Origin: an uncultured virus (IMG/VR IMGVR_UViG_3300035188_001031)
Lineage: Duplodnaviria > Heunggongvirae > Uroviricota > Caudoviricetes
Length of the DNA stretch: 64,000 nt
Virus record (IMG/VR): IMGVR_UViG_3300035188_001031
Direction: 5' to 3' (one strand)
This document shows, piece by piece, positions 4,847 through 50,769 of this stretch (position 1 is the first letter of the stretch; every line of letters begins with the position of its first letter). The position numbers were made by a program, and so were the translations under genes. Under the pieces are notes generated by a model. It was not told the DNA's origin and ran no database searches. It was given only the letters and a program-made list of their open reading frames with translations.

Positions 4847-5022
4847 CCGCTTTAACCATTGAAGTAATACAGGATGGGCCCGTCAAAATCGTAGAAGTTC
4901 TACACCCCGGGCCTCGGGGACTGAACGCCCTAGATATTAATCTTCTTCAAATTGATGGCGGAGCGGCCTCGACAATTTACGGGGTAACTAACTACCACGT
5001 TGTTGACGGAGGCGGAGCATAA
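4843..5022 (+). CDS. Hypothetical 59-aa fibre-associated protein (not in ORF track)
   Basis: [26 protein letters not shown]...IDGGAA...VDGGGA; overlaps both neighbours (ATGA, TAATG). Confidence 0.6.
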
Positions 5023-7199
5023 TGGCCACCCGTATTCAAAAACGTAGAGATACTGCCGCGAACTGGACTGCAGTAAACCCAGTCTTAGCCCAAGGAGAAG
5101 AAGGAATTGAGCTGGATACCAACAAAGAGAAAATTGGCAATGGCACTACCGCTTGGAACAGTCTCCCTTACAAAACACTTGGACTCACCCCGAGTGCGAT
5201 AGGCGCTGCCACTGCAGCTCAAGGAGCAAAAGCAGATTCTGCTGTACAACCTGCAGGCTTGACCAAGGCTGCTGTAGGCCTTGGGAACGTTGATAACACC
5301 AGTGATGCTAACAAGCCTGTCAGCACAGCACAGGCTGCTGCTTTGATAGCCCATGAAGCTGCAGCAAATCCACATCCCGGCTACCTGACACCGGCCGAGG
5401 CGAACGCGGCTTATGCAACGGTGGCGCAAGGGGCACTAGCGGTAACAGCAATTCAACCGGGCAATCCAGCGCTGAGTGATCCCAGGACGCCCACAGCACA
5501 CAAGAGCAGCCATGCTGTTGGCGGATCTGATGCGCTGAGCCCTGCAGATATTGGCGCGGTTGGCACCAGTGACAGCAGAATGAGCGACTCCAGGGAATGG
5601 AGCGCTCCAACAGTCACGGAAGCAGAGGCCACCCAGGGCACGTCTACGGAAAGGCGCGCCTGGACTTCAGTTCGAGTCTTCCAATCCATCGCAAGCTGGT
5701 GGAACGGCTCAGCGGCAAAGACCAAGCTGGACGGAATTCAGGAGGGGGCCCAGGCAAATGTGGCTACCAACCTCAGTTACGACGCCGCAACCCGCAACCT
5801 GACCAGCAGCACGGGATCGCCTGCCGTGCTGCCGTTGTTTGGGAGTGGTACCGCTGGATTGGTGCCAGCCAGTGGAGGCGGAACCACCAAATACCTGCGG
5901 GAAGATGGCGCATTTGCGGAGCCCCCTGGCGCTGGTGGATTCCCCGGCGGCTCCAATACCCAGATCCAATTCAACGATGGCGGCACTTTCGGTGGGGACA
6001 TAGATCTCACCTACAACAAGACCACCAACCTGCTGACCAGCAAGGGCGACATCCTTCTGGATGATGGTGGGTCTTTTACTACCACGCTTCAGACGGTTAC
6101 AGCAACGGCGAATCGGACGATTTCATTCCCTGATGCGACCGGCACGGTGGCCCTGGTTGGTGGCAGCAGCGGTCAGGTTCTAGTCAACACCAATGGTGCT
6201 GTTGCGGGGCTAAGCACTCTCACCGCTGACAGCTCGGGCAACCTCACGCTCACGGCCAGGCTGATCAATGCGTTTAACAGCCTGGCCAGCGCACCGGCCA
6301 AGCTGTTCAGCGGCACTTGGTTCACGGGTGGGACGTCAACCACCACGAAACCGCATGTGTTAATTGAACCGGCGGGGACCAGCTCAACGCACTGGAACAC
6401 GGGGGGGACGGGATGGGGGGTTAATGGTCCGCCTGGGTTTGCGGGGGATCTGGCGTGGCTTGGGGTGAATGGGACTTCCTTTTTTCGGCTTTCCTCCGGA
6501 AGTGGATTGTCTATCAATGGAACGGTTGCTGGTAATTCATTTAGAGATGGCGGCGGGACTTTTCAGCTTGACGGTAATGGATTGCGTATAAGATCAGACA
6601 GAGTATTCGGGATTGGAACTGATGCTTTTGGTACAAATGCAGACGTTTTATGGAGGCGCGACGGTGCCGGGATCTGGGCAACTTACAACGGTGTCAATCC
6701 TCAGACAGTCAGGATCTACAACACCTTCACCAACGACACCAACTTTGAGCGGGGCAAGTCAGGATGGGAGCGCAGCACATCTGATGGTGTGGTTACTGGT
6801 TCGATTGCTGGCACCACGCTGATAGTAACGGCTCTCACCAGTGGTGCTTTAGCAGTTGGTCAGATCATTACAGGAACCAATGTTCTGTCGGGCACTCGTA
6901 TCACGGCACTTGGCACTGGCACCGGAGGAACCGGAACTTATACCGTCAGCCAGTCCCAAACCGTAGCTTCCACCACAATCACAGGTGGTGCCCCTGCGTT
7001 CCGCCTCGGCACCGAAAAAGGCTCCGGCGGCGGCACTGCCCGCGATATGGAGTTTCAGACTGATGGCATCACAAGGATCACGCTGAAGGCTGATGGCGCG
7101 ATCCTGTTTTCCAACATACCAACGACGAATCCAAACGTTGCGGGCCAGCTGTGGAGCGACGCCAATGACGGCGGAACCCTGAAACTCTCTGCCGGTTGA
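5022..7199 (+). CDS. Tail fibre/receptor-binding protein with Mtd-N-like N-terminal domain
   Basis: [32 protein letters not shown]...[31 protein letters not shown], Gly/Thr-rich body. Confidence 0.85.
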
Positions 7200-9269: not shown

Positions 9270-9480
9270 TCATGAACCGTTGACGTACTCCCCCGCCTGA
9301 AGGCGGGAGATTCTCGGATCTTCAGGAGCCCTCATGGTGCTTCCCCTCCCCGAGCTTCTCTAGCGCCCAGCCCGGACGCTGAATGGATTCCACGCTTGAG
9401 CACCACCTGAGCGGCGGCTACATCCCGATCGGCGGTGTAGCCGCACTCCGGGCAGTCGTGGACACGAACACTGAGATCCT
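9260..9480 (-). ncRNA. Predicted TnpB omega/reRNA (boundaries approximate) with guide CGGTTCATGAATGGGTCGCT
   Basis: Inferred from known TnpB biology: the scaffold overlaps the tnpB 3' end and right end, and the guide is the flank beyond TCAA. Confidence 0.55.
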
Positions 9481-10600
9481 TCGGCACTGCCGCCCCGCAC
9501 TCGGGGCATTGCTGGCTGGTGCCCCTGGCATCCACCTTCTTCACGCAGACGCCACGCTTCAGCCCGACCCATTTCAGGATCGAGATGAACTGGCTCCAGC
9601 CTGCATCGAGCACCTGCTTCGACAGGTTGCCGCGTGCCATCCCTGCGATGTTCAGCGCCTCAACCACGATGGTGTCGGCGGTGTCGCAGAGCCGGTGGGC
9701 TTCCTTGAAGTGGAAGTCTTTGCGGACATTGCTCAGGCGTTCGTGTTGCCTGGCGAGACGGTGCATGGCGATGCGCCAGCGGCTGCTCCCCTTGCGCTTC
9801 TTCGATGCCAAACGGTTCAGCTCTTTCAGCCTGTGTTGTCCGGTCTCGAAGAAACGGGGATTGGCCACCAACTCACCGGCACTGGTCGCCAGGAAGTTGT
9901 TGATGCCGACATCGACGCCGATCGCATTGCCGTGTGGCTGCGGTTCGGGGATGTCGATGTCCTGCTCAAGCGAGAGCATGGCGTAGAAGCCAGACGCTCG
10001 CTTGACGATCCGCACCTGCTTGACGATGGCGCCATCAGGCAGCGGACGAGACTGGCGTAGCTTCACCCAGCCGATCTTCGGCAGGCTGATGCGGCCAGCA
10101 GATAACACCTGCTTGTTCAACTGCGGGAACAGGAAAGACCTGATCCGTTTCTTGAACCTTGGGAAGCCCAGTCCTCGCTCCCATGTCGCCACAAAGGATG
10201 CCTCCAGGTTGCGGAGGACTTGCTGGAGAACATGGGTGTGAGGTTCCTTCAGCCATGGCCGTGATGGCTTGGCGGCTGCCAATGCAGCGCACTGCTTGGC
10301 GAAGGTGGGCTTGGGTGCATCCGGCGGAATGATGTACTCCTGCCGGATCGAGCAGGCGTTGACGGGTGATTTCTTCGCACGAGCGAAGTCCCGTCGCTCA
10401 GCCAGGGCGTAGTTCCAGACGCCTTTGCAGATGTCCAGCCAGCGGTCGAAAGTCTCGACCTGGGCGGGCGTCGGCAGCAGCTTGAACTCGTAGGTCTGGT
10501 TAAGCATGACTAAATGGTAGCCGTTTTCTTCAGGCTGTGCTGGACAAGGCTTTGAGGGAAAGCCGCCCTGAAGGGCGGGGCTTGAGACCCAGTTCCAAGG
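9280..10600 (-). mobile_element. IS200/IS605-family (IS1341-like, tnpB-only) insertion sequence
   Basis: On the minus strand: left-end hairpin CCGCCCTTCAGGGCGG after CTGAC, right-end hairpin CCCGCCTTCAGGCGGG ending in ...CGTCAA; no tnpA. Confidence 0.85.
9332..10507 (-). CDS. tnpB: RNA-guided endonuclease TnpB
   Basis: MLNQTYEFKLLPT HTH start; RuvC motifs IGVDVG, IVVEAL and DRDVAAA; CPECG...CPECG zinc finger. Confidence 0.95.
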   Translation of the reverse strand: MLNQTYEFKLLPTPAQVETFDRWLDICKGVWNYALAERRDFARAKKSPVNACSIRQEYIIPPDAPKPTFAKQCAALAAAKPSRPWLKEPHTHVLQQVLRNLEASFVATWERGLGFPRFKKRIRSFLFPQLNKQVLSAGRISLPKIGWVKLRQSRPLPDGAIVKQVRIVKRASGFYAMLSLEQDIDIPEPQPHGNAIGVDVGINNFLATSAGELVANPRFFETGQHRLKELNRLASKKRKGSSRWRIAMHRLARQHERLSNVRKDFHFKEAHRLCDTADTIVVEALNIAGMARGNLSKQVLDAGWSQFISILKWVGLKRGVCVKKVDARGTSQQCPECGAAVPKDLSVRVHDCPECGYTADRDVAAAQVVLKRGIHSASGLGAREARGGEAP

Positions 10601-10718
10601 GTCAGCTACCAGGGCTGGCAGGGGCGGCACTGCCGCGACACCTTCCGGGATCTGAAGGCTTGCATCAGCGCGGTGGATCAGCGGCTGATGGGGGATTGCC
10701 CCATGGACCCTTAACGAG

Positions 10719-11015
10719 ATGCTGATGGGCAGCCGCTTGGTCGCCATTACGACTGAGGCCTTCCAGGGCAGCAGCGACCGAAGCTTCAGAGCTCCCCGCC
10801 CTCGTGCTCAGGGGGTAGGCAACCACCAAGCCAAGCTGACCGAGCGTGAAGCCAAGGAGATTCTCCGCGCTCGGGGGAACTGCTCTCAGGCTTCGCTGGC
10901 GGCTCGTTACAAAGTGTCACCCGCACTGATCAGCGCCATTCACCGGGGCAAAAAGTGGGGCCATCTTCAGCAGCAGTCCACTTCTAGTCCACCTGCAAAG
11001 GGTGCGCTACCATAA
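10719..11015 (+). CDS. HTH DNA-binding protein resembling the C-terminal domain of phage HNH endonucleases
   Basis: GVGNHQAKLTEREAKEI...SQASLAARYKVSPALISAIHRGKKWGHL; no HNH motif present. Confidence 0.6.
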   Translation: MLMGSRLVAITTEAFQGSSDRSFRAPRPRAQGVGNHQAKLTEREAKEILRARGNCSQASLAARYKVSPALISAIHRGKKWGHLQQQSTSSPPAKGALP

Positions 11016-29826: not shown

Positions 29827-30174
29827 ATGACCGCAACCGTTTCCCGCGTCCGCATGTATAAGCCCACTGGCGACATCGGCAAACGCTTACAAGAGGCCTA
29901 CCAACTGCAGGCCGACATCGCCGCTCTCGAAGATAAGCTAAAAGTGCATCGTGATTTTATACTCATGCACATGGAAGAGAAAGCACTTGACAAGATACAG
30001 CTTAACGACATCATTGTTTACAGAAGAATCCGCCACAAGTGGAGCTACTCTATTGCCACACGCAATGAGATGCTGAAACTACAAACCACCCAAGAATACG
30101 AACAGGCCGAGGGCATCGCCACCGATACCCCGCGTGTTTACATTGCTCTCACTCATAAGGGGGCCCAGAAGTGA
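29827..30174 (+). CDS. Hypothetical coiled-coil phage protein
   Basis: In-frame ATG within track ORF 29680..30174. Confidence 0.6.
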   Translation: MTATVSRVRMYKPTGDIGKRLQEAYQLQADIAALEDKLKVHRDFILMHMEEKALDKIQLNDIIVYRRIRHKWSYSIATRNEMLKLQTTQEYEQAEGIATDTPRVYIALTHKGAQK

Positions 30175-30605
30175 TGACTGATTCAGCAAGAGCCCGACGC
30201 ATCAGCGACCTGATCGAAGAATCCGTTTATGGCCCTAGAGGAGCAGAAACCCCTCCCTGTGCAAACGCATGGGAAGTTTCCAAACTGATTGCTTCACTAG
30301 AGGCCCGCCTGGAAGCGCTAGAGGCCATCCCACAACCCCCCATCTCAATGGCACAGGCCCCCGAGAGCGCCACGAAAGAGCAGTCGAGCCCATGGCGAGA
30401 TCCTCGTTTATATCCGAAAGAGATCTCAGACGGGCAGTACATAGAAGCTGCTCGCCTGGCCGTTCAGTACCTGGGTCATATCAGCATTGCTGAGACACCC
30501 TACGTTGAGCGCACTGACGACGATCTGGGCGCCTATGTTAGTGCTCAGATCTGGGTCCCTAAATGGCATGGAACTTCCTCTCTGATCACTAATTCCACAC
30601 CATGA
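30171..30605 (+). CDS. Hypothetical protein
   Basis: Coupled operon ORF; GAYVSAQIWVP motif. Confidence 0.55.
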   Translation: MMTDSARARRISDLIEESVYGPRGAETPPCANAWEVSKLIASLEARLEALEAIPQPPISMAQAPESATKEQSSPWRDPRLYPKEISDGQYIEAARLAVQYLGHISIAETPYVERTDDDLGAYVSAQIWVPKWHGTSSLITNSTP

Positions 30606-31324
30606 CCACCACCACCCTCACCAGGAACACCGACCTCCTTAAACAGGGAGTCCACGAACACATCACGGCGGATGTCGTCGTCCAGGGTAAGTACTGGTCA
30701 GACGGCAAAGGCTGCTTCATCGGGTGCCTGACTTATTCAGACGACCCCACTCCTGCTGTGGAGCGATTTGGGCTCACTGAGTGCATTCTTCGCATTGCGG
30801 AACACATCTTTGAATCTCTTCCGCTTGAGGAAGCTAAGCAATTCTTCTTCGACTTTCCCGGCGCTGTGGCTACGGACGGTAAAGACCTCTCCTTGATCCA
30901 TTGGGCCTTCCTCGGTGAAACCCTAAGGAATCTCCCTCCTCAGCGGCCCGAAATCCAGGCCGTTATTGACCCAGTTATTGATGGCATGGATTTACTGGCT
31001 TCTGGCAGCGTCTGGGAGAAAGGCACCCGTGCCGCCGCCAGTGACGCCGCCAGGGCCGCCTATGCCGCCTCCTGTGCCGCCGGTGACGCCGCCGGTAACG
31101 CCGGTAACGCCGCCTGGGCCGTCAGTGACGCCGCCGGTGTCGCCGCCGGTGACGCTGCCAGTGACGGCGTCTGGGCCGCCACCATGGCCGTCGACATGGC
31201 CTACTGCCGTGCCGCCGAAACTCGCCGGCAGCGGGAATCCCTGTTGCGGCTCATTCGAGAGGCGCCTGTTGTGACCCCTTCCCCCAGCCCGAGGAAGGCC
31301 CCCGAGGGCGACCTGGGAGAGTAG
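30602..31324 (+). CDS. Hypothetical protein with Ala-rich AAxDAA repeats
   Basis: QGKYW...GCFIGC N-terminus followed by an Ala-rich tract. Confidence 0.7.
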   Translation: MTTTTLTRNTDLLKQGVHEHITADVVVQGKYWSDGKGCFIGCLTYSDDPTPAVERFGLTECILRIAEHIFESLPLEEAKQFFFDFPGAVATDGKDLSLIHWAFLGETLRNLPPQRPEIQAVIDPVIDGMDLLASGSVWEKGTRAAASDAARAAYAASCAAGDAAGNAGNAAWAVSDAAGVAAGDAASDGVWAATMAVDMAYCRAAETRRQRESLLRLIREAPVVTPSPSPRKAPEGDLGE

Positions 31325-31380
31325 TAGCTGCTGCCCGCCGGGAGCCCATCCCGGCAATTTATTCAATCGCAGTTCCCACC

Positions 31381-31623
31381 ATGAGCAAATCCCAAATCCC
31401 ATCAGATTTGGTCTGTTTCGTTCCCTTCGACGAAGCCGACAAAGACCTCGCCAACGCCTGCCGCGAATGGATTAAAGGGTGTAGCTGCGCTCCACCAGAT
31501 TCGCCGCAGGAATGCACGGCCTGCACCAATGCCTTTCTGAACGCTGTGCTCACACGAGCCAAAAACCACGGACTAGAGATTGGCGCCAATGCCATCTGGG
31601 CAGACGGCTGCTACGACGTGTAG
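31381..31623 (+). CDS. Hypothetical Cys-rich protein
   Basis: EWIKGCSC...ECTAC. Confidence 0.55.
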   Translation: MSKSQIPSDLVCFVPFDEADKDLANACREWIKGCSCAPPDSPQECTACTNAFLNAVLTRAKNHGLEIGANAIWADGCYDV

Positions 31624-31635
31624 TACTGAACAATC

Positions 31636-31938
31636 ATGTACCTAGACGAGATGCTGCAACTGCTGAACGAAGGTCCCAATCGCCTCGTTCAAAACAACAA
31701 CATAAAGGAGAGCCCCAACACCATGTTGGTGCCCGTCAAAATCGCAACACAATTCAGTGACGCCTTTGCCGCCTTACTCAAAGCCTTTTCCGCCTTCCAA
31801 TCCTCTCCCAACTATGCAGAGCCCTGGTGGCCCCTAGACGTGACCGACACCAGCGGCTCCTTCGGCCGCTTCGTCTGGGTCAACTCCGATGAGTGTGGCT
31901 GGGGCCACTGCTACTGGGAGGATGACGACAATGCTTGA
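31636..31938 (+). CDS. Hypothetical protein whose N-terminal 30 aa copy a segment of the major capsid protein
   Basis: 31645-31734 matches 50350-50439 at 84/90 nt, in the same frame. Confidence 0.7.
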   Translation: MYLDEMLQLLNEGPNRLVQNNNIKESPNTMLVPVKIATQFSDAFAALLKAFSAFQSSPNYAEPWWPLDVTDTSGSFGRFVWVNSDECGWGHCYWEDDDNA

Positions 31939-32149
31939 ACCTGTCACCCCCGCCCCCATGCCCACCTACACCATCCTCACCGTCGATCGGTACGGCCACT
32001 GGACCGATTACCTCGGTCCCGGTGACAACACCTGGCCCTCTACCACAGCTGCCACTCAAGCCATCACCGAACTGGAAGCCATCGGCTTCACCGGCCCCTG
32101 GGCCATCGTGCAGACCAGCACCCTGCCATTCCGCGACCTTGTTGCGTAA
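31931..32149 (+). CDS. Hypothetical protein
   Basis: Overlapping operon ORF. Confidence 0.5.
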   Translation: MLEPVTPAPMPTYTILTVDRYGHWTDYLGPGDNTWPSTTAATQAITELEAIGFTGPWAIVQTSTLPFRDLVA

Positions 32150-32174
32150 TAAAGCGCAACCAAGACGGGATAGG

Positions 32175-32203
32175 TTGACACCCTGACCAAATCCCGCTAC
32201 GTT
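32175..32203 (+). promoter_or_regulatory. Promoter TTGACA-17-TACGTT
   Basis: Seen directly, upstream of the pseudoknot leader. Confidence 0.65.
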
Positions 32204-32217
32204 TTGAAAGTCCCCAC

Positions 32218-32247
32218 CCCAGGGGTGCGCCTGGGTCACCAACGCAC
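32218..32247 (+). promoter_or_regulatory. Predicted H-type pseudoknot leader, copy 1
   Basis: CCCAGG-GGTGCG-CCTGGG-TCACCAA-CGCAC. Confidence 0.6.
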
Positions 32248-32274
32248 AGTCCTCTCTTCTCATCTACTACCACC

Positions 32275-33375
32275 ATGCAGACAACCTTTATCCGTCCAGG
32301 CACTTACAACACCGTGACGCAGGCCGCCATCGCCCCCGGCCACGACGTCATGGTCTACGGCCGCTATCGCGAACGGGGCTACCACGTCGAACCCCTCACC
32401 TCCCGCGCCGGAGGTGTCTTCACCCCCGAGAACGCCTCCGCTTCCGAAGCCTTCGCCCTGGCAGGTCTGAACTGGACGGCGGAGAAGCATGATGCGCTGT
32501 ACAGCCCTGATGGCATCACCATCAAAAGAGCTACCGACCACTGCTCCATCGTCCGTTCCGATACCGGTGACCTGCTCGGCATCCACGGCGCTGGCTACAC
32601 ACCACTCCAGCACCACGCCATCATCAACCTCCTCGACTACCTGCGCGAAGACATTCGCATCGAGTCAGTACTGAACATTTGCCAGGGCCGCAGGGTCGTC
32701 GTCAGCGCCGCCCTCAAACTGCAGGATGAAGTCGTCCCCGGCGACCGCATCCGCCGGTACATCCACATCTTCAACTCTCACGACGGCTCCAGCGCCTTCG
32801 GCGTGATGTTCTCCGACAGGCGCCTCCGCTGCGCCAATGAGATCAACTTCATCACCGGCCGCGCCTTCCACAACGCCGTCGCCGAGGGTAATGGCCTCCG
32901 AGCCCGTCACACCGTCAACGTCGAGTGGTTCGCCCGTTCCCTGCCGGATCTGATCAATCTCCAGCAGCAGAGCTTCCACCAACGCATTTGGGAAATGCAG
33001 GACATGGCCGCCACACCCTGCACCATCGAGATGGCCCGCCGCATCCTGGAGCAGACCTACGCCGATCGTCTCGCAACTCCCGTCCACGAGCGCAACGGCA
33101 CTACTCGCCCTCGCCATCTCGGCGACATCCGCGACTTCGAGACGATCATGAGCCACTACCAGGGGGAGACCGGCTACGGCATCAACGACGACGCCCGTCC
33201 GATTGGCGGCACGGTCTACGGCCTATACAACGCCATTACCCAGTTCCACACCCACGATGCTGGCCGCAAAACCGACACCACCGAGCACGCCCGCGCCCGC
33301 CTCGAATCCCTCTGGGGCGGCCCCAGCGCGACTCGCATGGAGAAGGCTTACCGGGCTTGTCTAGCTGTCTGCTGA
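32275..33375 (+). CDS. DUF932 family protein
   Basis: AGLNW, YTPLQH, NSHDGSSA, RLRCANE, TVYGLYNAITQF. Confidence 0.85.
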   Translation: MQTTFIRPGTYNTVTQAAIAPGHDVMVYGRYRERGYHVEPLTSRAGGVFTPENASASEAFALAGLNWTAEKHDALYSPDGITIKRATDHCSIVRSDTGDLLGIHGAGYTPLQHHAIINLLDYLREDIRIESVLNICQGRRVVVSAALKLQDEVVPGDRIRRYIHIFNSHDGSSAFGVMFSDRRLRCANEINFITGRAFHNAVAEGNGLRARHTVNVEWFARSLPDLINLQQQSFHQRIWEMQDMAATPCTIEMARRILEQTYADRLATPVHERNGTTRPRHLGDIRDFETIMSHYQGETGYGINDDARPIGGTVYGLYNAITQFHTHDAGRKTDTTEHARARLESLWGGPSATRMEKAYRACLAVC

Positions 33376-33384
33376 TCGCCGCAT

Positions 33385-33414
33385 CCCAGGGGTGCGCCTG
33401 GGTCCACAACGCAC
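33385..33414 (+). promoter_or_regulatory. Predicted H-type pseudoknot leader, copy 2
   Basis: CCCAGG-GGTGCG-CCTGGG-TCCACAA-CGCAC. Confidence 0.6.
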
Positions 33415-36737: not shown

Positions 36738-39103
36738 CCCCGAGTACGCGCCGTCCCCTGAGCCGCCTTCAACCAACTCAAGAACAGCTCATAGACACAC
36801 CCAGACCCGAATGCTATGCTTGACCTAGCTTGACCGTCCCCTACTGCTGCGCCTACCGTGGACAGCGATCAGCTCTTCACGAGCAACGTCACCATCAATG
36901 ACCCCGGCTACACCAATGGCCACTTATGGGGCATGGGCCCTGGCTTTGGCTCCAATGCCGAAGCAGCATGGAAAACAGGCCACACGGGATCGAGGGATGT
37001 TTATGTGGGAATTATTGACACAGGGGTGGATTTTAATCACCCTGATCTGGCTGCGAATATCTGGGTCAACCCCCACGAGACCGTAGACGGAATTGATAAT
37101 GACGGGAACGGCTACATTGATGATATTCGCGGCTGGGATTTCGATAGAAACGACAATACGGTTTTTGACGGCCCTCAAGATGGCCACGGCACCCATGTAG
37201 CCGGAATTATCGGGGCTGTTGGTGGAAATAGCCAAGGTGTGGTTGGAGTAGCCCCCAACCTGCGAATTATCCCCATCAAATTCATAGGGAATCGCGGCGG
37301 AACGACCATCGGGGTCCAGAGGGCCCTGGATTACTTGACGGATCTGAAACGGCGTCATGGCCTCAACATCGTGGCCAGCAACCATTCCTGGTCAGGTGGA
37401 ACAGGCCCTTGGATGGAGGACGCCATCCTTCGAGCCGCGCAGGCAGACATTTTGTTCGTCGCGGCTGCTGGCAATTCCGGTCGGGACAGTGATGTTCATG
37501 TCTCCTACCCATCGGGGATCAGCACCTTGCAGAGAGCCGGTTACGAAGCCGTCATCTCTGTAACAGGATTGGATGTCAACGGAAATCAACAATACAATTA
37601 TGGAAGGACAACGGTAGATCTAGCCGCACCCTCGTCTGGCATTTACTCCACCCTGCCAGGAAACAATTACTCAACCCTGAGCGGAACCTCTATGGCGGCG
37701 CCGCATGTTACGGGGGCGATTGCACTTTATGCCGCAAAGTATCCCAACGCTAGTGCTCAACAGATTCGAGAAGCGTTGCTAGCGAGTACCACTCCAACAG
37801 CCTCGTTGGCGGGCAAAACAGTGACAGGTGGTCGGCTGAACGTGGCGGCATTCCTGAACACTCCACCACCAACTGGCGCTTTTCCAGCTCCAACACCGGC
37901 CCCGGTACCTCCAACACCAGCTCCAGCACCAACCCCACCCCCTGCTCCAACTCCAGCTCCAGCACCTCCAACACCAGCCCCTCAACCGGGAGCGCTGGTG
38001 CCGGTAGAGGTCACGGCAATCGACCTGGACGGTTTTAGTGACTCTCCCAGATTCGAGCAGGTGGTCAACGCCTTTGATAGCAATGCAAACACCAAATACC
38101 TCAACATCGGAGGTAGCAACTCAGGCATTCAGCTGCGCTTCGCGACCCCAACCCGTTTGGGCTCGTTCTCTCTCACCACGGCCAATGACATGCCCGGCAG
38201 GGATCCGGCCTCTTACCAGGTCTATGGCCTCAACGGCAGCTCCTGGCAGCTCCTCACCTCAGGTGCTTTGCAACTACCAGCGGCGCGTCTCACTGCTGGC
38301 AACAGCATTGCATTGCCAGAGCTGCCAATTCTGTCGAGCTACCGGGTGATTTTCCCGACGCTCAGAGCAGAAAACCAGATGATGCAGATTTCTGAATTGA
38401 AGCTCTATGGCCACGGCAGCACGCCAGCTCCCACTCCAGCGCCACCAGCCCCCACTCCTACTCCTGCACCACCGGCACCACCGGCACCAGCGCCGCCAAC
38501 ACCAACACCAGCACCAGCACCAGCACCAGGGCTTCTCCCCTCGCCCGTAGGGATTACAGCAATAGATCTTGATGGTTTTAGTGCCTCCCCAACCTTTGAG
38601 AAGGTAGGCAATGCGTTTGATAATGATCCCGTAACAAAGTATTTGAATATCGGAGGTAGCAACGCTGGTATTGAGTTCAGCTACTTGACAGCAACCCACA
38701 TCACTGGGTTCAGGGTAACCACAGCCAATGACATGCCAGGCAGGGATCCTGCCTCTTACCAGATCTATGGGCAGCGAAATGGCGGATGGGATCTTCTCAT
38801 CTCGGGCGGCCTTCAGCTGCCCACTGCACGACTGACAGAAGCTCCAGCCGTCTCCCTAGATGGTCTGTCCGCACTTACCACATACCGCCTGGTGTTTCCA
38901 ACCCTCAGGACAGACGGCAACATGATGCAAATAGCTGACCTGAAGCTCTACGGCACCCAGGCCAGCCCCACCACAATGTCCGATCCAGCCACAAGCCCCC
39001 CGAGTACGGACTGGCTTGTATAGCGCAGCACCAACCTATTCACGAACAGCGCATGGACGCACCCACATCCGAATGCTATGCTTGAACCAAGTTCACCCGT
39101 CCC
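36738..39103 (+). repeat. Imperfect ~100-bp direct repeat (about 36738-36840 and 38998-39103) flanking the subtilase gene
   Basis: Shared CCCGAGTACG...GAACAGC.CAT.GAC.CACCCA.A.CCGAATGCTATGCTTGA...CCGTCCC. Confidence 0.8.
36858..39023 (+). CDS. Subtilisin-like S8 serine protease with Pro-rich linkers and two repeated discoidin-like domains
   Basis: Catalytic triad in IIDTG, HGTHVAG and GTSMAAPHV; AAAGN oxyanion motif; duplicated NAFD..TKYLN...TANDMPGRDP..YQ...MQI..LKLYG domains. Confidence 0.93.
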   Translation: MDSDQLFTSNVTINDPGYTNGHLWGMGPGFGSNAEAAWKTGHTGSRDVYVGIIDTGVDFNHPDLAANIWVNPHETVDGIDNDGNGYIDDIRGWDFDRNDNTVFDGPQDGHGTHVAGIIGAVGGNSQGVVGVAPNLRIIPIKFIGNRGGTTIGVQRALDYLTDLKRRHGLNIVASNHSWSGGTGPWMEDAILRAAQADILFVAAAGNSGRDSDVHVSYPSGISTLQRAGYEAVISVTGLDVNGNQQYNYGRTTVDLAAPSSGIYSTLPGNNYSTLSGTSMAAPHVTGAIALYAAKYPNASAQQIREALLASTTPTASLAGKTVTGGRLNVAAFLNTPPPTGAFPAPTPAPVPPTPAPAPTPPPAPTPAPAPPTPAPQPGALVPVEVTAIDLDGFSDSPRFEQVVNAFDSNANTKYLNIGGSNSGIQLRFATPTRLGSFSLTTANDMPGRDPASYQVYGLNGSSWQLLTSGALQLPAARLTAGNSIALPELPILSSYRVIFPTLRAENQMMQISELKLYGHGSTPAPTPAPPAPTPTPAPPAPPAPAPPTPTPAPAPAPGLLPSPVGITAIDLDGFSASPTFEKVGNAFDNDPVTKYLNIGGSNAGIEFSYLTATHITGFRVTTANDMPGRDPASYQIYGQRNGGWDLLISGGLQLPTARLTEAPAVSLDGLSALTTYRLVFPTLRTDGNMMQIADLKLYGTQASPTTMSDPATSPPSTDWLV

Positions 39104-43711: not shown

Positions 43712-44584
43712 TTGGATCTACTTGAGCGCTACAACAATCTGCTACGGAATGCCGAGGATGATGTAGTTGTACTATTAAATCAGGTTCTGGAGAGCTCGTT
43801 TAATCGTCTGCTTCGCCGAGCACGGGAGCATATGCGACGCGGCATGCGAGATCCAAGCCAACGGAATGTGCTGCTGTTGCAAGTGTTCCGTGAGCTGATT
43901 CCTGCTGTGCGGCCGGACATGCAGGACCAGTATGACGAGTTATTCCGGAATTTAGTTGCGGAGGCATCCAAGCTTGGGATCGTGGCAGCTGATGCGCTCA
44001 CGGGTGAGCTACTACCCACTCATCCACGAGTGGATATTACAATTCCGATTGAGGCAACGATGGCTGCTGCGGCGCAGGCTAAGGGGTATTTAAGGCGTCA
44101 TGGGGATGAGTTTGCCCGAACTGCTGCGGAGATTGTGGCGCAGGGGATTGCAGAAGGTCGCCCTACTGATGCGATGGTGCGTGATATGCGAGACCGTCTA
44201 GTGATTACAAGAGGGCGAGCGGAGACCATTGTACGAACCGAAAGTATGCGTGCGTATTCGGAAGCAAGTAATGCGTATTACGCTACAATAGGAATTGATC
44301 TAGTGATGTATTACGCGACAAGTGACGATCGGACTTGTCCAGTATGTCGAGACAGGGCAGGTCGTATTTATCGACGTACAGAGTTAAAGTTACCGTTACA
44401 TCCACGGTGCCGGTGTGCTGTAGCGCCGTATGACCCTGAGATAGCAAGGATTGATCCTACTTATGCCGGAATGGCTGCACGTCATCGCAAGGAAGTCGCA
44501 AAGCATACGGGTGTTCCGTTGAGCGATGACCTGACAAAAGCGGTGTTTGAGTCGATGGCGCCTACTCCTGTTACAGATGTGTGA
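43712..44584 (+). CDS. Minor head protein MuF / SPP1 gp7 family
   Basis: RAETIVRTE, DDRTCPVC, PLHPRCRC. Confidence 0.9.
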   Translation: MDLLERYNNLLRNAEDDVVVLLNQVLESSFNRLLRRAREHMRRGMRDPSQRNVLLLQVFRELIPAVRPDMQDQYDELFRNLVAEASKLGIVAADALTGELLPTHPRVDITIPIEATMAAAAQAKGYLRRHGDEFARTAAEIVAQGIAEGRPTDAMVRDMRDRLVITRGRAETIVRTESMRAYSEASNAYYATIGIDLVMYYATSDDRTCPVCRDRAGRIYRRTELKLPLHPRCRCAVAPYDPEIARIDPTYAGMAARHRKEVAKHTGVPLSDDLTKAVFESMAPTPVTDV

Positions 44585-44958: not shown

Positions 44959-45010
44959 CCCACCCACGGCCCGCCGGGAGCCTATCCCGGCAAGCAATCC
45001 CACCGCAGCC

Positions 45011-49234: not shown

Positions 49235-49858
49235 ATGGCTGTTACCTTCACCGCTACCACTGTAGCCAATCCCATCGGAGCTCAGGGAAATTACCCCCTG
49301 ACTCAGGATGCAGCTCACGAGGGCATGATTGCTGATCAGCAAGCCTATGTCTCCCGTAGCTACATCAACCAGTCCGGCGCGGCACTGCCTTTTGGGGCAC
49401 TGCTGAGGATCGACAACACCCCGACGACCAATGTCGCATTGGCAGTCGAGATCGCTGCAGGAGCTACCAACATCGTTGGTCTTGCCGTGAGCTCCATGAC
49501 CATGGAGGGTGTTGGGGGCTCCCAGTCCTACATCCCCAATCCCACTCCTATCTTCTCGGACGGCCGCCTCGGCTATCCCGACAAGGAGACGGTGAATGTC
49601 CTTTCCAAGGGCGTCGTCTGGGTCTACGTCACTGAGGCCGTGGCTCTCGGTGATGACGTGCGCTTCTGGAATGCCGCTAACACCACCGGTGGTAGTGCTG
49701 TTGCAGGTTCGTTCCTTGGACGTTTCGCCAAAACGGCCGTGGCCAATAAGACCACGCGCATCACGGGTGCCCGCTGGCTCTCTGAGACCTCGGCAGCCGG
49801 TCTGGTTCTTCTGGAACTGGACATCCCCGCTTCCACTTTCACCGCTGACGTGCCATGA
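49235..49858 (+). CDS. Head decoration/cement protein
   Basis: Between protease and capsid genes; LPFG...VNVLSKGVVWV. Confidence 0.75.
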   Translation: MAVTFTATTVANPIGAQGNYPLTQDAAHEGMIADQQAYVSRSYINQSGAALPFGALLRIDNTPTTNVALAVEIAAGATNIVGLAVSSMTMEGVGGSQSYIPNPTPIFSDGRLGYPDKETVNVLSKGVVWVYVTEAVALGDDVRFWNAANTTGGSAVAGSFLGRFAKTAVANKTTRITGARWLSETSAAGLVLLELDIPASTFTADVP

Positions 49859-50769
49859 CCAGAGACATCCGTAACGATGCTGATGTCGGTATCTTTCTTG
49901 CTCGCGAGCTGGAGCAGATCCTTACTCGCACTTTCGAGCAACAGTATGCTGACATCAAGTATTCCACTGTTGTACCTATTTCTACTGAAGTAGGTCCCGG
50001 TGCCAACTCCTACACCTATCGGGTGTTCGACAAGATCGGCAGTATGAAGATGATCGCTGACAAAGCGCAGGATCTTCCCCGCTCCGATGTGCTCCGCAAG
50101 GAAGTCACCCACCCGGTGCGTTCCTTCGGCGCCTCGTTCGCCTACACCGTTCAGGAAACCCGGGCCGCCTCCATGGTCCCCGGCATGAACCTGGAGCAGC
50201 GTCGGGCCAATGCCGTCAGGCGGGCCTATGAGGAGACCATGCAGTCCCTCGCCTTTTTCGGAGATACCGGAAGTGGTATGAAGGGCTTCTTGAACAACGA
50301 TCAGATCGATAAGCTTGTTCCTAACAAGTGGTTCGATACTGCATCTACGGACGAGATGCTGCAACTGCTGAACGAAGGTCCCACTCGCCTGGTTCAGAAC
50401 AGCAACATGAAGGAAAGCCCCAACACCATGTTGGTGCCCTACGACGTGTACCGCATCATCTCCACCACCCCGAGATCGACCACCAGCGACACTACGGTTC
50501 TGGAGTTCTTCCTCCGCACCAATCCGATCATCCGTGCCATTGAACCCATCAATGAGCTCGAAGCATCGAAATCCGGTGGTCGCCTGTCCAAGGACCGCAT
50601 CGTCATCTACGACCGGAGCCCAGACAAGCTCCAGTTCCATATCACTCAACCCCTGGAGTTCTTCCCTCCGGAGCGCCGTGGTCTGGAATTCTCCGTTGCT
50701 GCACACGCTCGCTGCGGCGGCCTCGCTTGGTACTACCCCAAGAGCGGCCTTGTCATGGAGAAAGCGTAG
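49855..50769 (+). CDS. Major capsid protein (DUF2184 type)
   Basis: FLARELEQI, AFFGD..GMKGFLN, ARCGGL..YYP. Confidence 0.9.
   Translation: MTRDIRNDADVGIFLARELEQILTRTFEQQYADIKYSTVVPISTEVGPGANSYTYRVFDKIGSMKMIADKAQDLPRSDVLRKEVTHPVRSFGASFAYTVQETRAASMVPGMNLEQRRANAVRRAYEETMQSLAFFGDTGSGMKGFLNNDQIDKLVPNKWFDTASTDEMLQLLNEGPTRLVQNSNMKESPNTMLVPYDVYRIISTTPRSTTSDTTVLEFFLRTNPIIRAIEPINELEASKSGGRLSKDRIVIYDRSPDKLQFHITQPLEFFPPERRGLEFSVAAHARCGGLAWYYPKSGLVMEKA

Follow-up and report, generated by a model that had tools for sequence, protein, structure and literature searches.

Why does a 100-aa ORF among the small genes of a phage genome open with a piece of the phage's own major capsid protein, and does that piece contribute to the function of the ORF? 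We addressed this question for a locus in a 64,000-nt stretch of DNA from an uncultured member of the Caudoviricetes (IMG/VR IMGVR_UViG_3300035188_001031), the whole of which we refer to as the window. A sequence-only reading had proposed three explanations for this locus: a capsid-mimic decoy, a recombination donor for capsid variation, or a neutral recent gene fusion. Considered together, the sequence evidence presented here indicates that this fusion of genes is real, of recent origin, and spread throughout the population.

Thirty codons of the major capsid gene are repeated in frame near the start of a small ORF

The features of the fusion ORF and of its donor gene are as follows.

31636..31938, + strand: fusion ORF, 100 aa, consisting of a start and 2 codons, 30 capsid-derived codons, a 29-aa linker, and a C-terminal module
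31645..31734, + strand: captured copy, equivalent to capsid codons 166-195 and forming codons 4-33 of the fusion ORF
31735..31821, + strand: variable linker, predicted to be helical, homologous to family members without the capsid piece
31822..31935, + strand: C-terminal module, WWPL ... GFGRF ... W.N.D ... WG.C.W plus an acidic tail, conserved in the family
49855..50769, + strand: donor, major capsid protein gene, 304 aa, with profile matches to PF09950, phrog_264, and PDB 8hdt/9kmg
50350..50439, + strand: donor segment in the capsid gene, capsid residues 166-195

A repeat search of the window identified 31645-31734 and 50350-50439 as the sole members of one two-copy repeat family, a 90-nt direct repeat that is 84/90 identical (93%) and ungapped, with abrupt ends and a spacing of 18.7 kb between its two copies. 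Direct reading of the two stretches gave the same 84/90 match that had first been reported. The reading frame of the captured (early) copy is that of the capsid gene, and an ATG and two codons precede the captured segment, which confirmed the earlier placement of its start at codon 4. A Nei-Gojobori count likewise returned the three synonymous and three non-synonymous differences originally described, with a dS of 0.176 and a dN of 0.044, for an omega of 0.25 between the captured copy and the capsid that is based on 6 substitutions. All six differences fall inside 32 nt, with identical runs of 34 nt and 24 nt on either side (P = 0.017 for the clustering). This central clustering and the identical flanks could each be the outcome of selection acting on the core, of gene conversion with the capsid copy as template, or of a hot spot for mutation where the A-rich AAC repeats lie. 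The early copy carries A at 4/6 differing sites, the other two being C-to-G and G-to-A. Two of the three synonymous differences are polymorphic among capsid alleles, and the third is specific to the early allele of the window.

Similarity between the remainder of the ORF and the capsid gene was non-significant, with 53/200 shuffles scoring equally, supporting the earlier description of the C terminus as unrelated to the capsid. We also considered a duplicated structured RNA element and rejected it, since the fold stability of both 90-nt copies lay within that of the shuffled controls (z = -1.18 and -1.23, with 23 and 21 of 200 shuffles equally stable).

The donor ORF matched PF09950 (E 1.9e-53, residues 63-299), phrog_264 (E 4.4e-81), and, in a profile search, Pam3 gp7 (PDB 8hdt_A; E 1.3e-31); the relevant passage of PMC9942802 gives 8HDT as Pam3 gp7. 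These profile matches agree that the donor gene encodes a true major capsid protein of the HK97 type, as the sequence-only reading had assumed. A protease/scaffold gene and a cement-protein gene precede the capsid gene, and tail genes follow it. The nearest cultured relative of the capsid is the major capsid protein of the Synechococcus siphophage S-CBS4, at 55% identity. The host of the window phage would be inferred solely from this match to a Synechococcus phage and from the fact that the runs described below come from lakes.

In an alignment of 40 capsids, 17/30 residues of the donor segment were invariant. Segment positions 12-13 and 18-22 were invariant across 103 capsid homologues (103 of 120 were parsed, and 17 were not parsed by the pattern), and the segment was identical to that of the window in 14/14 members of its own capsid cluster with the segment. 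At the DNA level, the donor segment is identical in genome G001 and matches at 86/90 positions in the sister phage G003. The exact set of segment residues Q5, G10, and S24 was found solely in the nearest capsid clusters, which argues that the donor came from the phage's own clade. An AlphaFold2 model of the capsid (mean pLDDT of 37.5) placed the segment, with low confidence, in two short helices followed by a strand.

As a whole protein, the product of the fusion ORF matched no Pfam and no PHROG family at E <= 0.01 and contains just 30/304 capsid residues. It gave no whole-domain profile match to PF09950 or phrog_264, and we did not class it as an HK97-type major capsid protein. An ESM Atlas search returned a best feature score of 0.86 and no family. 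The AlphaFold2 model of the fusion ORF had a mean pLDDT of 56, and a predicted complex of the capsid and the fusion ORF scored 0.00, with the fold of the partner being uncertain.

Genomic setting of the fusion ORF

The fusion ORF is located among small ORFs between a methyltransferase gene and a DUF932 gene, and its designation as an early gene would follow from genome position alone. Its immediate neighbors are listed below.

31337..31355, + strand: terminator-like hairpin directly upstream of the three-gene array, in a repeated intergenic element with a second copy at 44969-45008
31381..31623, + strand: upstream Cys-rich ORF, 80 aa, with its stop 12 nt before the ATG of the fusion ORF
31931..32149, + strand: downstream small ORF, with an ATG at 31931 that overlaps the stop of the fusion ORF and an alternative ATG at 31889

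The upstream ORF, the fusion ORF, and the downstream ORF form a tightly packed gene array. The small neighboring ORFs matched nothing in Pfam or PHROGs, and PADLOC, applied to the fusion ORF, five window neighbors, and the homologue at locus L004 of the sister phage, returned one weak match (HEase, 13.9 bits, E 0.006).

Repeated intergenic elements flank genes in both the accessory and the structural regions of the window, at 31333-31372 and 44969-45008 and at 32212-32247 and 33379-33414. Further intergenic repeats occur at 44581, 45386, and 45722 (116 nt each) and at 36770-36835 and 39032-39097. Some of these elements are hairpin- or terminator-like and may represent regulatory sites or recombination hot spots. 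Upstream of the array, 30602-31324 encodes a 240-aa ORF of degenerate Ala/Gly/Asp-rich repeats with 11 copies of a unit of ~42 nt; in metagenome contigs this region showed insertions, skips, and back-joins, which marks the product as a repeat protein of variable length.

Elsewhere in the window, an IS605 OrfB/TnpB-like gene (OrfB_IS605, Cas12f1-like TNB, HTH) lies at 9332-10747 on the - strand, and a 465-aa ORF that resembles the same kind of transposase by sequence lies in another location in the sister phage (L004 3275-4672). At the window edge, the first ORF, a tail-collar ORF open at its 5' end, contains a perfect 127-nt direct repeat (1-127 and 385-511). Positions 36858-39023, which separate the accessory region from the terminase genes, encode a subtilase (Peptidase_S8) with two internal repeat units spaced by ~540 nt and Pro/Thr/Ala-rich linkers, which is unusual cargo for a siphophage.

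The fusion is found in independent contigs and in many lake metagenomes

The sequence-only reading had allowed that the fusion could be an assembly chimera or be unique to this genome. We found the exact 100-aa protein on 23 contigs from several sources, the longest being 66,998 nt, and a 90%-identity cluster of the fusion protein with 21 members. Our count of variants is this 21, and the sequences inspected were the 15 listed members, of which 14 stand alone and retain the capsid piece in every case. One allele, P0128 (120 aa), has its last ~10 residues, the acidic tail, in tandem triplication, which may be a real expansion or an assembly artifact. In addition, a separate 21.5-kb IMG/VR contig was 99.99% identical to the window over 12.3 kb and covered both junctions of the captured piece.

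The stretch 31300-32300 was present in 24 metagenome runs from lakes or fresh water, and 15 of these may belong to the source campaign; none of the runs listed for it was an RNA run. In four other runs, contigs bridged the right junction in 4/4 cases. The left junction was bridged by 30 nt in one contig and by 10 nt in another. The unitigs otherwise forked at the repeat, which the 34-nt identical run within it would lead one to expect, and none of the unitigs listed spanned the full stretch 31300-32300.

These breaks of short-read unitigs at the repeat are what would be seen if the capsid piece had been mis-joined into the early region during assembly. However, identical junctions in the separate IMG/VR contig, the exact protein on 23 contigs, the 21 diverged variants, which include an in-frame insertion, and the crossing of the right junction in 4/4 runs leave the probability of such an artifact close to nil. 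The 23 contigs and 24 runs likewise show that the fusion is not unique to this genome.

The captured piece sits on the variable half of a small Trp-rich protein family

When 1.84 billion representatives were searched exhaustively by HMMER with the part of the ORF that follows the captured segment, just five real clusters emerged: that of the window itself (P0001), P0002, P0138, P0139, and P0142, all of ~90-100 aa. Two further matches were repeat proteins and were set aside. By phmmer, the fusion ORF matched P0002 with an E of 8.6e-20 and P0138 with an E of 1.4e-5. Invariant columns in the family alignment of 15 sequences numbered 14 and were confined to the C-terminal module, which usually has an acidic tail; the window ORF carries all 14. 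It also has the pattern and size by which we defined this WWPL-module family (WWPL ... G.FGR ... W.N.D ... WG ... W, ~90-100 aa). A PDB profile search with the family gave a best E of 0.18, and this search, Pfam, PHROGs, PADLOC, and the ESM Atlas all assigned no function.

The N-terminal halves of the family, in contrast to its C-terminal module, are unrelated or scarcely alignable. P0002 (88 aa) has its own 30-residue N terminus, and P0138, P0139, and P0142 have the C-terminal module alone in common. The form at L004 is 212 aa long, with a phrog_2164 domain in its ~130 first residues and the module at its end. The C-terminal part, whose homologues the sequence-only reading had suggested comparing, therefore occurs both with the capsid segment, in the window cluster, and without it, in P0002 and L004. 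These are small, uncharacterized phage accessory proteins with a conserved C-terminal Trp-rich module and a poorly conserved N-terminal half that is probably helical.

Beyond these clusters, matches among viral contigs were limited to the twin of the window and G003. No DNA match to 30600-33400 was obtained from cultured phages, family scans of metagenome contigs and genome contigs gave none that was confirmed, scans seeded with P0142 and P0138 gave nothing usable, and no longer fused forms were found.

Residues 36-41 of P0002 are the exact hexapeptide EMLQLL of capsid residues 167-172, which opens the captured segment. In P0002, this hexapeptide occupies a position homologous to the linker of the window ORF. 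Recombination may have started from this short similarity, or the match may be due to chance. BLASTP against the capsid gave an E of 0.29 for P0002, through this 6-residue match, and 9.6 for the L004 protein, which lends no support to an ancient capsid origin of the N terminus of the whole family.

The capture is a derived event with the marks of illegitimate recombination

The sister phage G003 (59,981 nt, 86% complete) encodes a capsid 98% identical to that of the window. In this phage the 90-nt segment occurs once, within the capsid gene, and the capsid piece is absent from the family gene, which indicates that the capture is derived. Since P0002 and the G003 protein have a common N-terminal motif that is absent from the window lineage, the non-capsid N terminus is the ancestral state. 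DNA homology to L004 restarts at 31740, 5 nt past the end of the capsid piece, and 31822-31948 has 92% DNA identity to L004. Compared with G003, the neighborhood as a whole is a heavy patchwork in which the order of blocks has changed and N-terminal leaders have been exchanged. Such a patchwork is the signature of illegitimate recombination.

One instance of leader exchange adjoins the fusion ORF. The upstream ORF has its 7 N-terminal residues (31381-31401) in common with an L004 ORF (6619-6885) whose body matches instead the window ORF at 30171..30605 (30244-30326). The presence of this start on a different body in L004 shows that N-terminal leaders are exchanged between neighboring small genes.

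A second short match to the capsid gene lies just upstream of the captured copy.

31611..31622, + strand: 12-nt exact match to capsid 50439-50450, formed by the last codons and the stop of the upstream ORF

Capsid bases 50439-50450 are those directly 3' of the donor segment, and the match lies 22 nt upstream of the copy, in permuted order. Among 200 shuffles, 2 produced a match of 12 nt to any part of the capsid gene, and the observed match abuts the end of the repeat. In L011 and L012, the homologues of this upstream ORF are without the 12-nt tail and have a different ending. We suspect that the 12-nt scrap is a second piece from the same multi-switch event.

Our model for the origin of this gene is that, in one S-CBS4-like lake-water phage lineage, the N-terminal ~30 residues of an accessory protein were replaced by 30 in-frame codons from the phage's own major capsid gene. 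Copying would have needed little homology, if any, and would have occurred by template switching or illegitimate recombination, probably in a multi-switch event that also left the 12-nt capsid scrap 22 nt upstream. An exchangeable N terminus may have been filled in this way by a capsid scrap that is predicted, in a low-confidence model, to be helical in its source context. The captured piece would then be translated as a tolerated N-terminal filler, and the function of the protein would reside in the C-terminal module rather than in capsid mimicry.

The captured piece has diverged from its source

Among 13 alleles, the early copies vary at segment positions 8, 11, 12, 17, 18, 20, and 21 (7/30 sites). 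Among 14 alleles, 11/29 residues of the linker and 2/33 residues of the C-module vary. One further allele has an extra Asn codon in the AAC run together with E2Q. The piece and the linker are therefore fast, the C-module is slow, and the capsid copy is almost static. The three non-synonymous differences of the window are all at residues that are unchanged in 103/103 parsed capsid homologues, indicating that these were changes in the early copy. Between the window allele and that of run X20, we counted 6 non-synonymous and 2 synonymous differences over 61 codons, for an omega of 0.83 that is based on 8 substitutions. All four residue combinations at core sites 18 and 21 occur among the alleles, which suggests recurrent change. 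Constraint on the captured piece is relaxed or different, and the piece is no longer evolving like the capsid. All variants remain in frame, with a start codon kept 3-4 codons before the piece (MYL, MTHN, MTL, or VTL) and the lone indel in frame. This retention of the frame and the upstream start in every variant implies that the piece may matter.

Possible roles of the captured piece

We consider the best reading of these data to be that illegitimate recombination replaced a tolerant N terminus and that constraint on the piece is now relaxed, to which we assign a probability of about 0.5. Among the earlier proposals, that of a neutral recent gene fusion is the best supported, by the variable N terminus of the family, the sister phage without the segment, the changes at invariant capsid residues, and the omega of ~0.8. 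Its recent fusion stands. Its neutrality is held back by the small number of substitutions, the omega of 0.25 between the early copy and the capsid, the central clustering of the differences and the four combinations at sites 18 and 21, and the conserved frame and start. On balance, the fusion looks like a tolerated recombination accident more than a purpose-built capsid mimic. We think it unlikely that the 30 residues act as a functional mimic that engages a capsid-contacting factor before or apart from assembly, either by blocking or titrating a host capsid sensor or by tuning assembly through a chaperone, the scaffold/protease, or the cement protein. Capsid proteins and peptides do trigger defenses, as the relevant passages of PMC9712102 describe for CapRel-Gp57, Gol-Lit, and PifA, and the fusion has persisted and diversified across many samples. 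The attachment of the C-module to another N-terminal domain in L004 would fit a constant module with an exchangeable specificity part. The nearly invariant flanks of the piece around a hypervariable core would also suit a mimic, but flank conservation is expected already from the young age of the capture, and the copy is altered precisely where every capsid is conserved, so that strict mimicry was not kept up; for this host, no sensor is known. More doubtful still is a working mimic from the accessory array that would occupy or titrate a host factor, either an immune sensor or a chaperone, recognizing the conserved helix-loop-strand, with the hypervariability of the core reflecting an arms race.

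Two further readings concern the captured DNA rather than the captured peptide. Translation might begin at the codon-29 ATG (31720-31722), making the captured DNA a leader or ribosome-binding region, which we regard as improbable. An AAGGAG at 31705-31710 lies 12 nt before this ATG where the capsid gene has AAGGAA, the synonymous difference at 31710 yields a better Shine-Dalgarno match, and M1 is without an obvious Shine-Dalgarno sequence. However, the X20 allele carries the capsid-type AAGGAA, and each variant keeps a start 3-4 codons before the piece, with the sole indel in frame. Furthermore, the 62 residues from M1 to WWPL fit the 49-63 of P0002, P0138, P0139, and P0142, compared to 34 from M29. 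The early copy could also be a reservoir that passes variant codons to the capsid gene by gene conversion, since 90 nt at 93% identity with perfect runs of 34 nt and 24 nt could permit conversion. One member of the fusion ORF cluster, P0133 (262 aa, on a 1,283-nt contig), consists of capsid residues 1-165, an early-type segment, and the C terminus of the early ORF and could be a recombinant. Its joint is equally well explained by unequal recombination or a circle between the repeats and by an assembler jump through the 34-nt identical run. Moreover, N12, N18, I20, and T21 of the early copies occur in 0/103 parsed capsid homologues (17/120 were not parsed) and in 0/14 members of the window's own capsid cluster, and crossing-over between the direct repeats would delete 18.7 kb including the terminase, portal, and protease genes. 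These findings speak against the earlier proposal of a donor for capsid variation, which we now consider highly improbable.

Significance of the fusion

This locus offers a clean natural example of how phages create new reading frames, in which part of the interior of an essential late gene was joined in frame to an accessory gene, was fixed in a wild population, and then drifted away from the original. A ready comparative series is provided by the 21 diverged alleles together with the sister phage that lacks the capture. If the piece is without function, the series would gauge the tolerance of N termini in small phage accessory proteins. If it is functional, the fusion would be a candidate, open to direct testing, for a decoy that derives from a capsid trigger and would connect capsid sensing by bacterial immunity with the origin of anti-defense genes, two subjects usually studied apart. 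Were the mimic reading true, this would be the first demonstrated case of an anti-defense decoy that consists in part of its trigger's own gene.

Comparison with known systems

The two nearly identical repeats of ~90 nt, with clustered differences that often involve adenine, resemble a diversity-generating retroelement. In contrast to such elements, the capsid copy here is invariant in nature and the segment is not at the 3' end of the gene. No reverse transcriptase was found among the 47 window ORFs scanned in Pfam, and the Mtd_N match of 5022..7199 covers a tail-fiber N-terminal domain only. We rejected this candidate on the missing reverse transcriptase and on the 2/6 differences without A in the presumed template. 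Satellites reportedly redirect capsid assembly with full-length capsid homologues, such as Ccm of cos-type PICIs. Ccm likewise places capsid-derived sequence outside the capsid gene, but such proteins are whole, co-assembling HK97-fold proteins, whereas the fusion ORF contains 30 residues and has no Pfam capsid match.

The Gol peptide is said to be similar in length to the 30-aa piece. Capsid-triggered defenses, for which the relevant text of PMC9712102 names the Gol peptide of T4 gp23 with Lit, SECPhi27 Gp57 with CapRelSJ46, and the T7 capsid with PifA, also center on a capsid protein or a short capsid peptide. In those systems the capsid itself is sensed, whereas our locus has a diverging second copy in another gene. 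DSAD1 counters DSR2, a sensor of the tail tube protein (PMC11087589), and such action of a phage protein against a structural-protein sensor is how a decoy would work. Derivation from a structural gene is evident here by sequence, whereas DSAD1 is not known to derive from the protein that its target senses. Literature searches judged by titles and abstract openings gave no case of a capsid-fragment decoy or a partial capsid duplication, which is weak evidence that none has been published.

In the model of Hendrix and Hatfull, phage genomes are mosaics produced by illegitimate recombination. Our locus shares with that model the sharp, low-homology junctions, a joint made viable by an open frame, and a patchwork relative to a sister phage. 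It differs in its donor, which comes from within an essential late gene that the same genome carries, and in that the piece was placed in frame in an accessory gene, with both copies coexisting as direct repeats spaced by 18.7 kb. Ordinary phage mosaicism, in this case involving an unusual donor, is the best explanation of the fusion.
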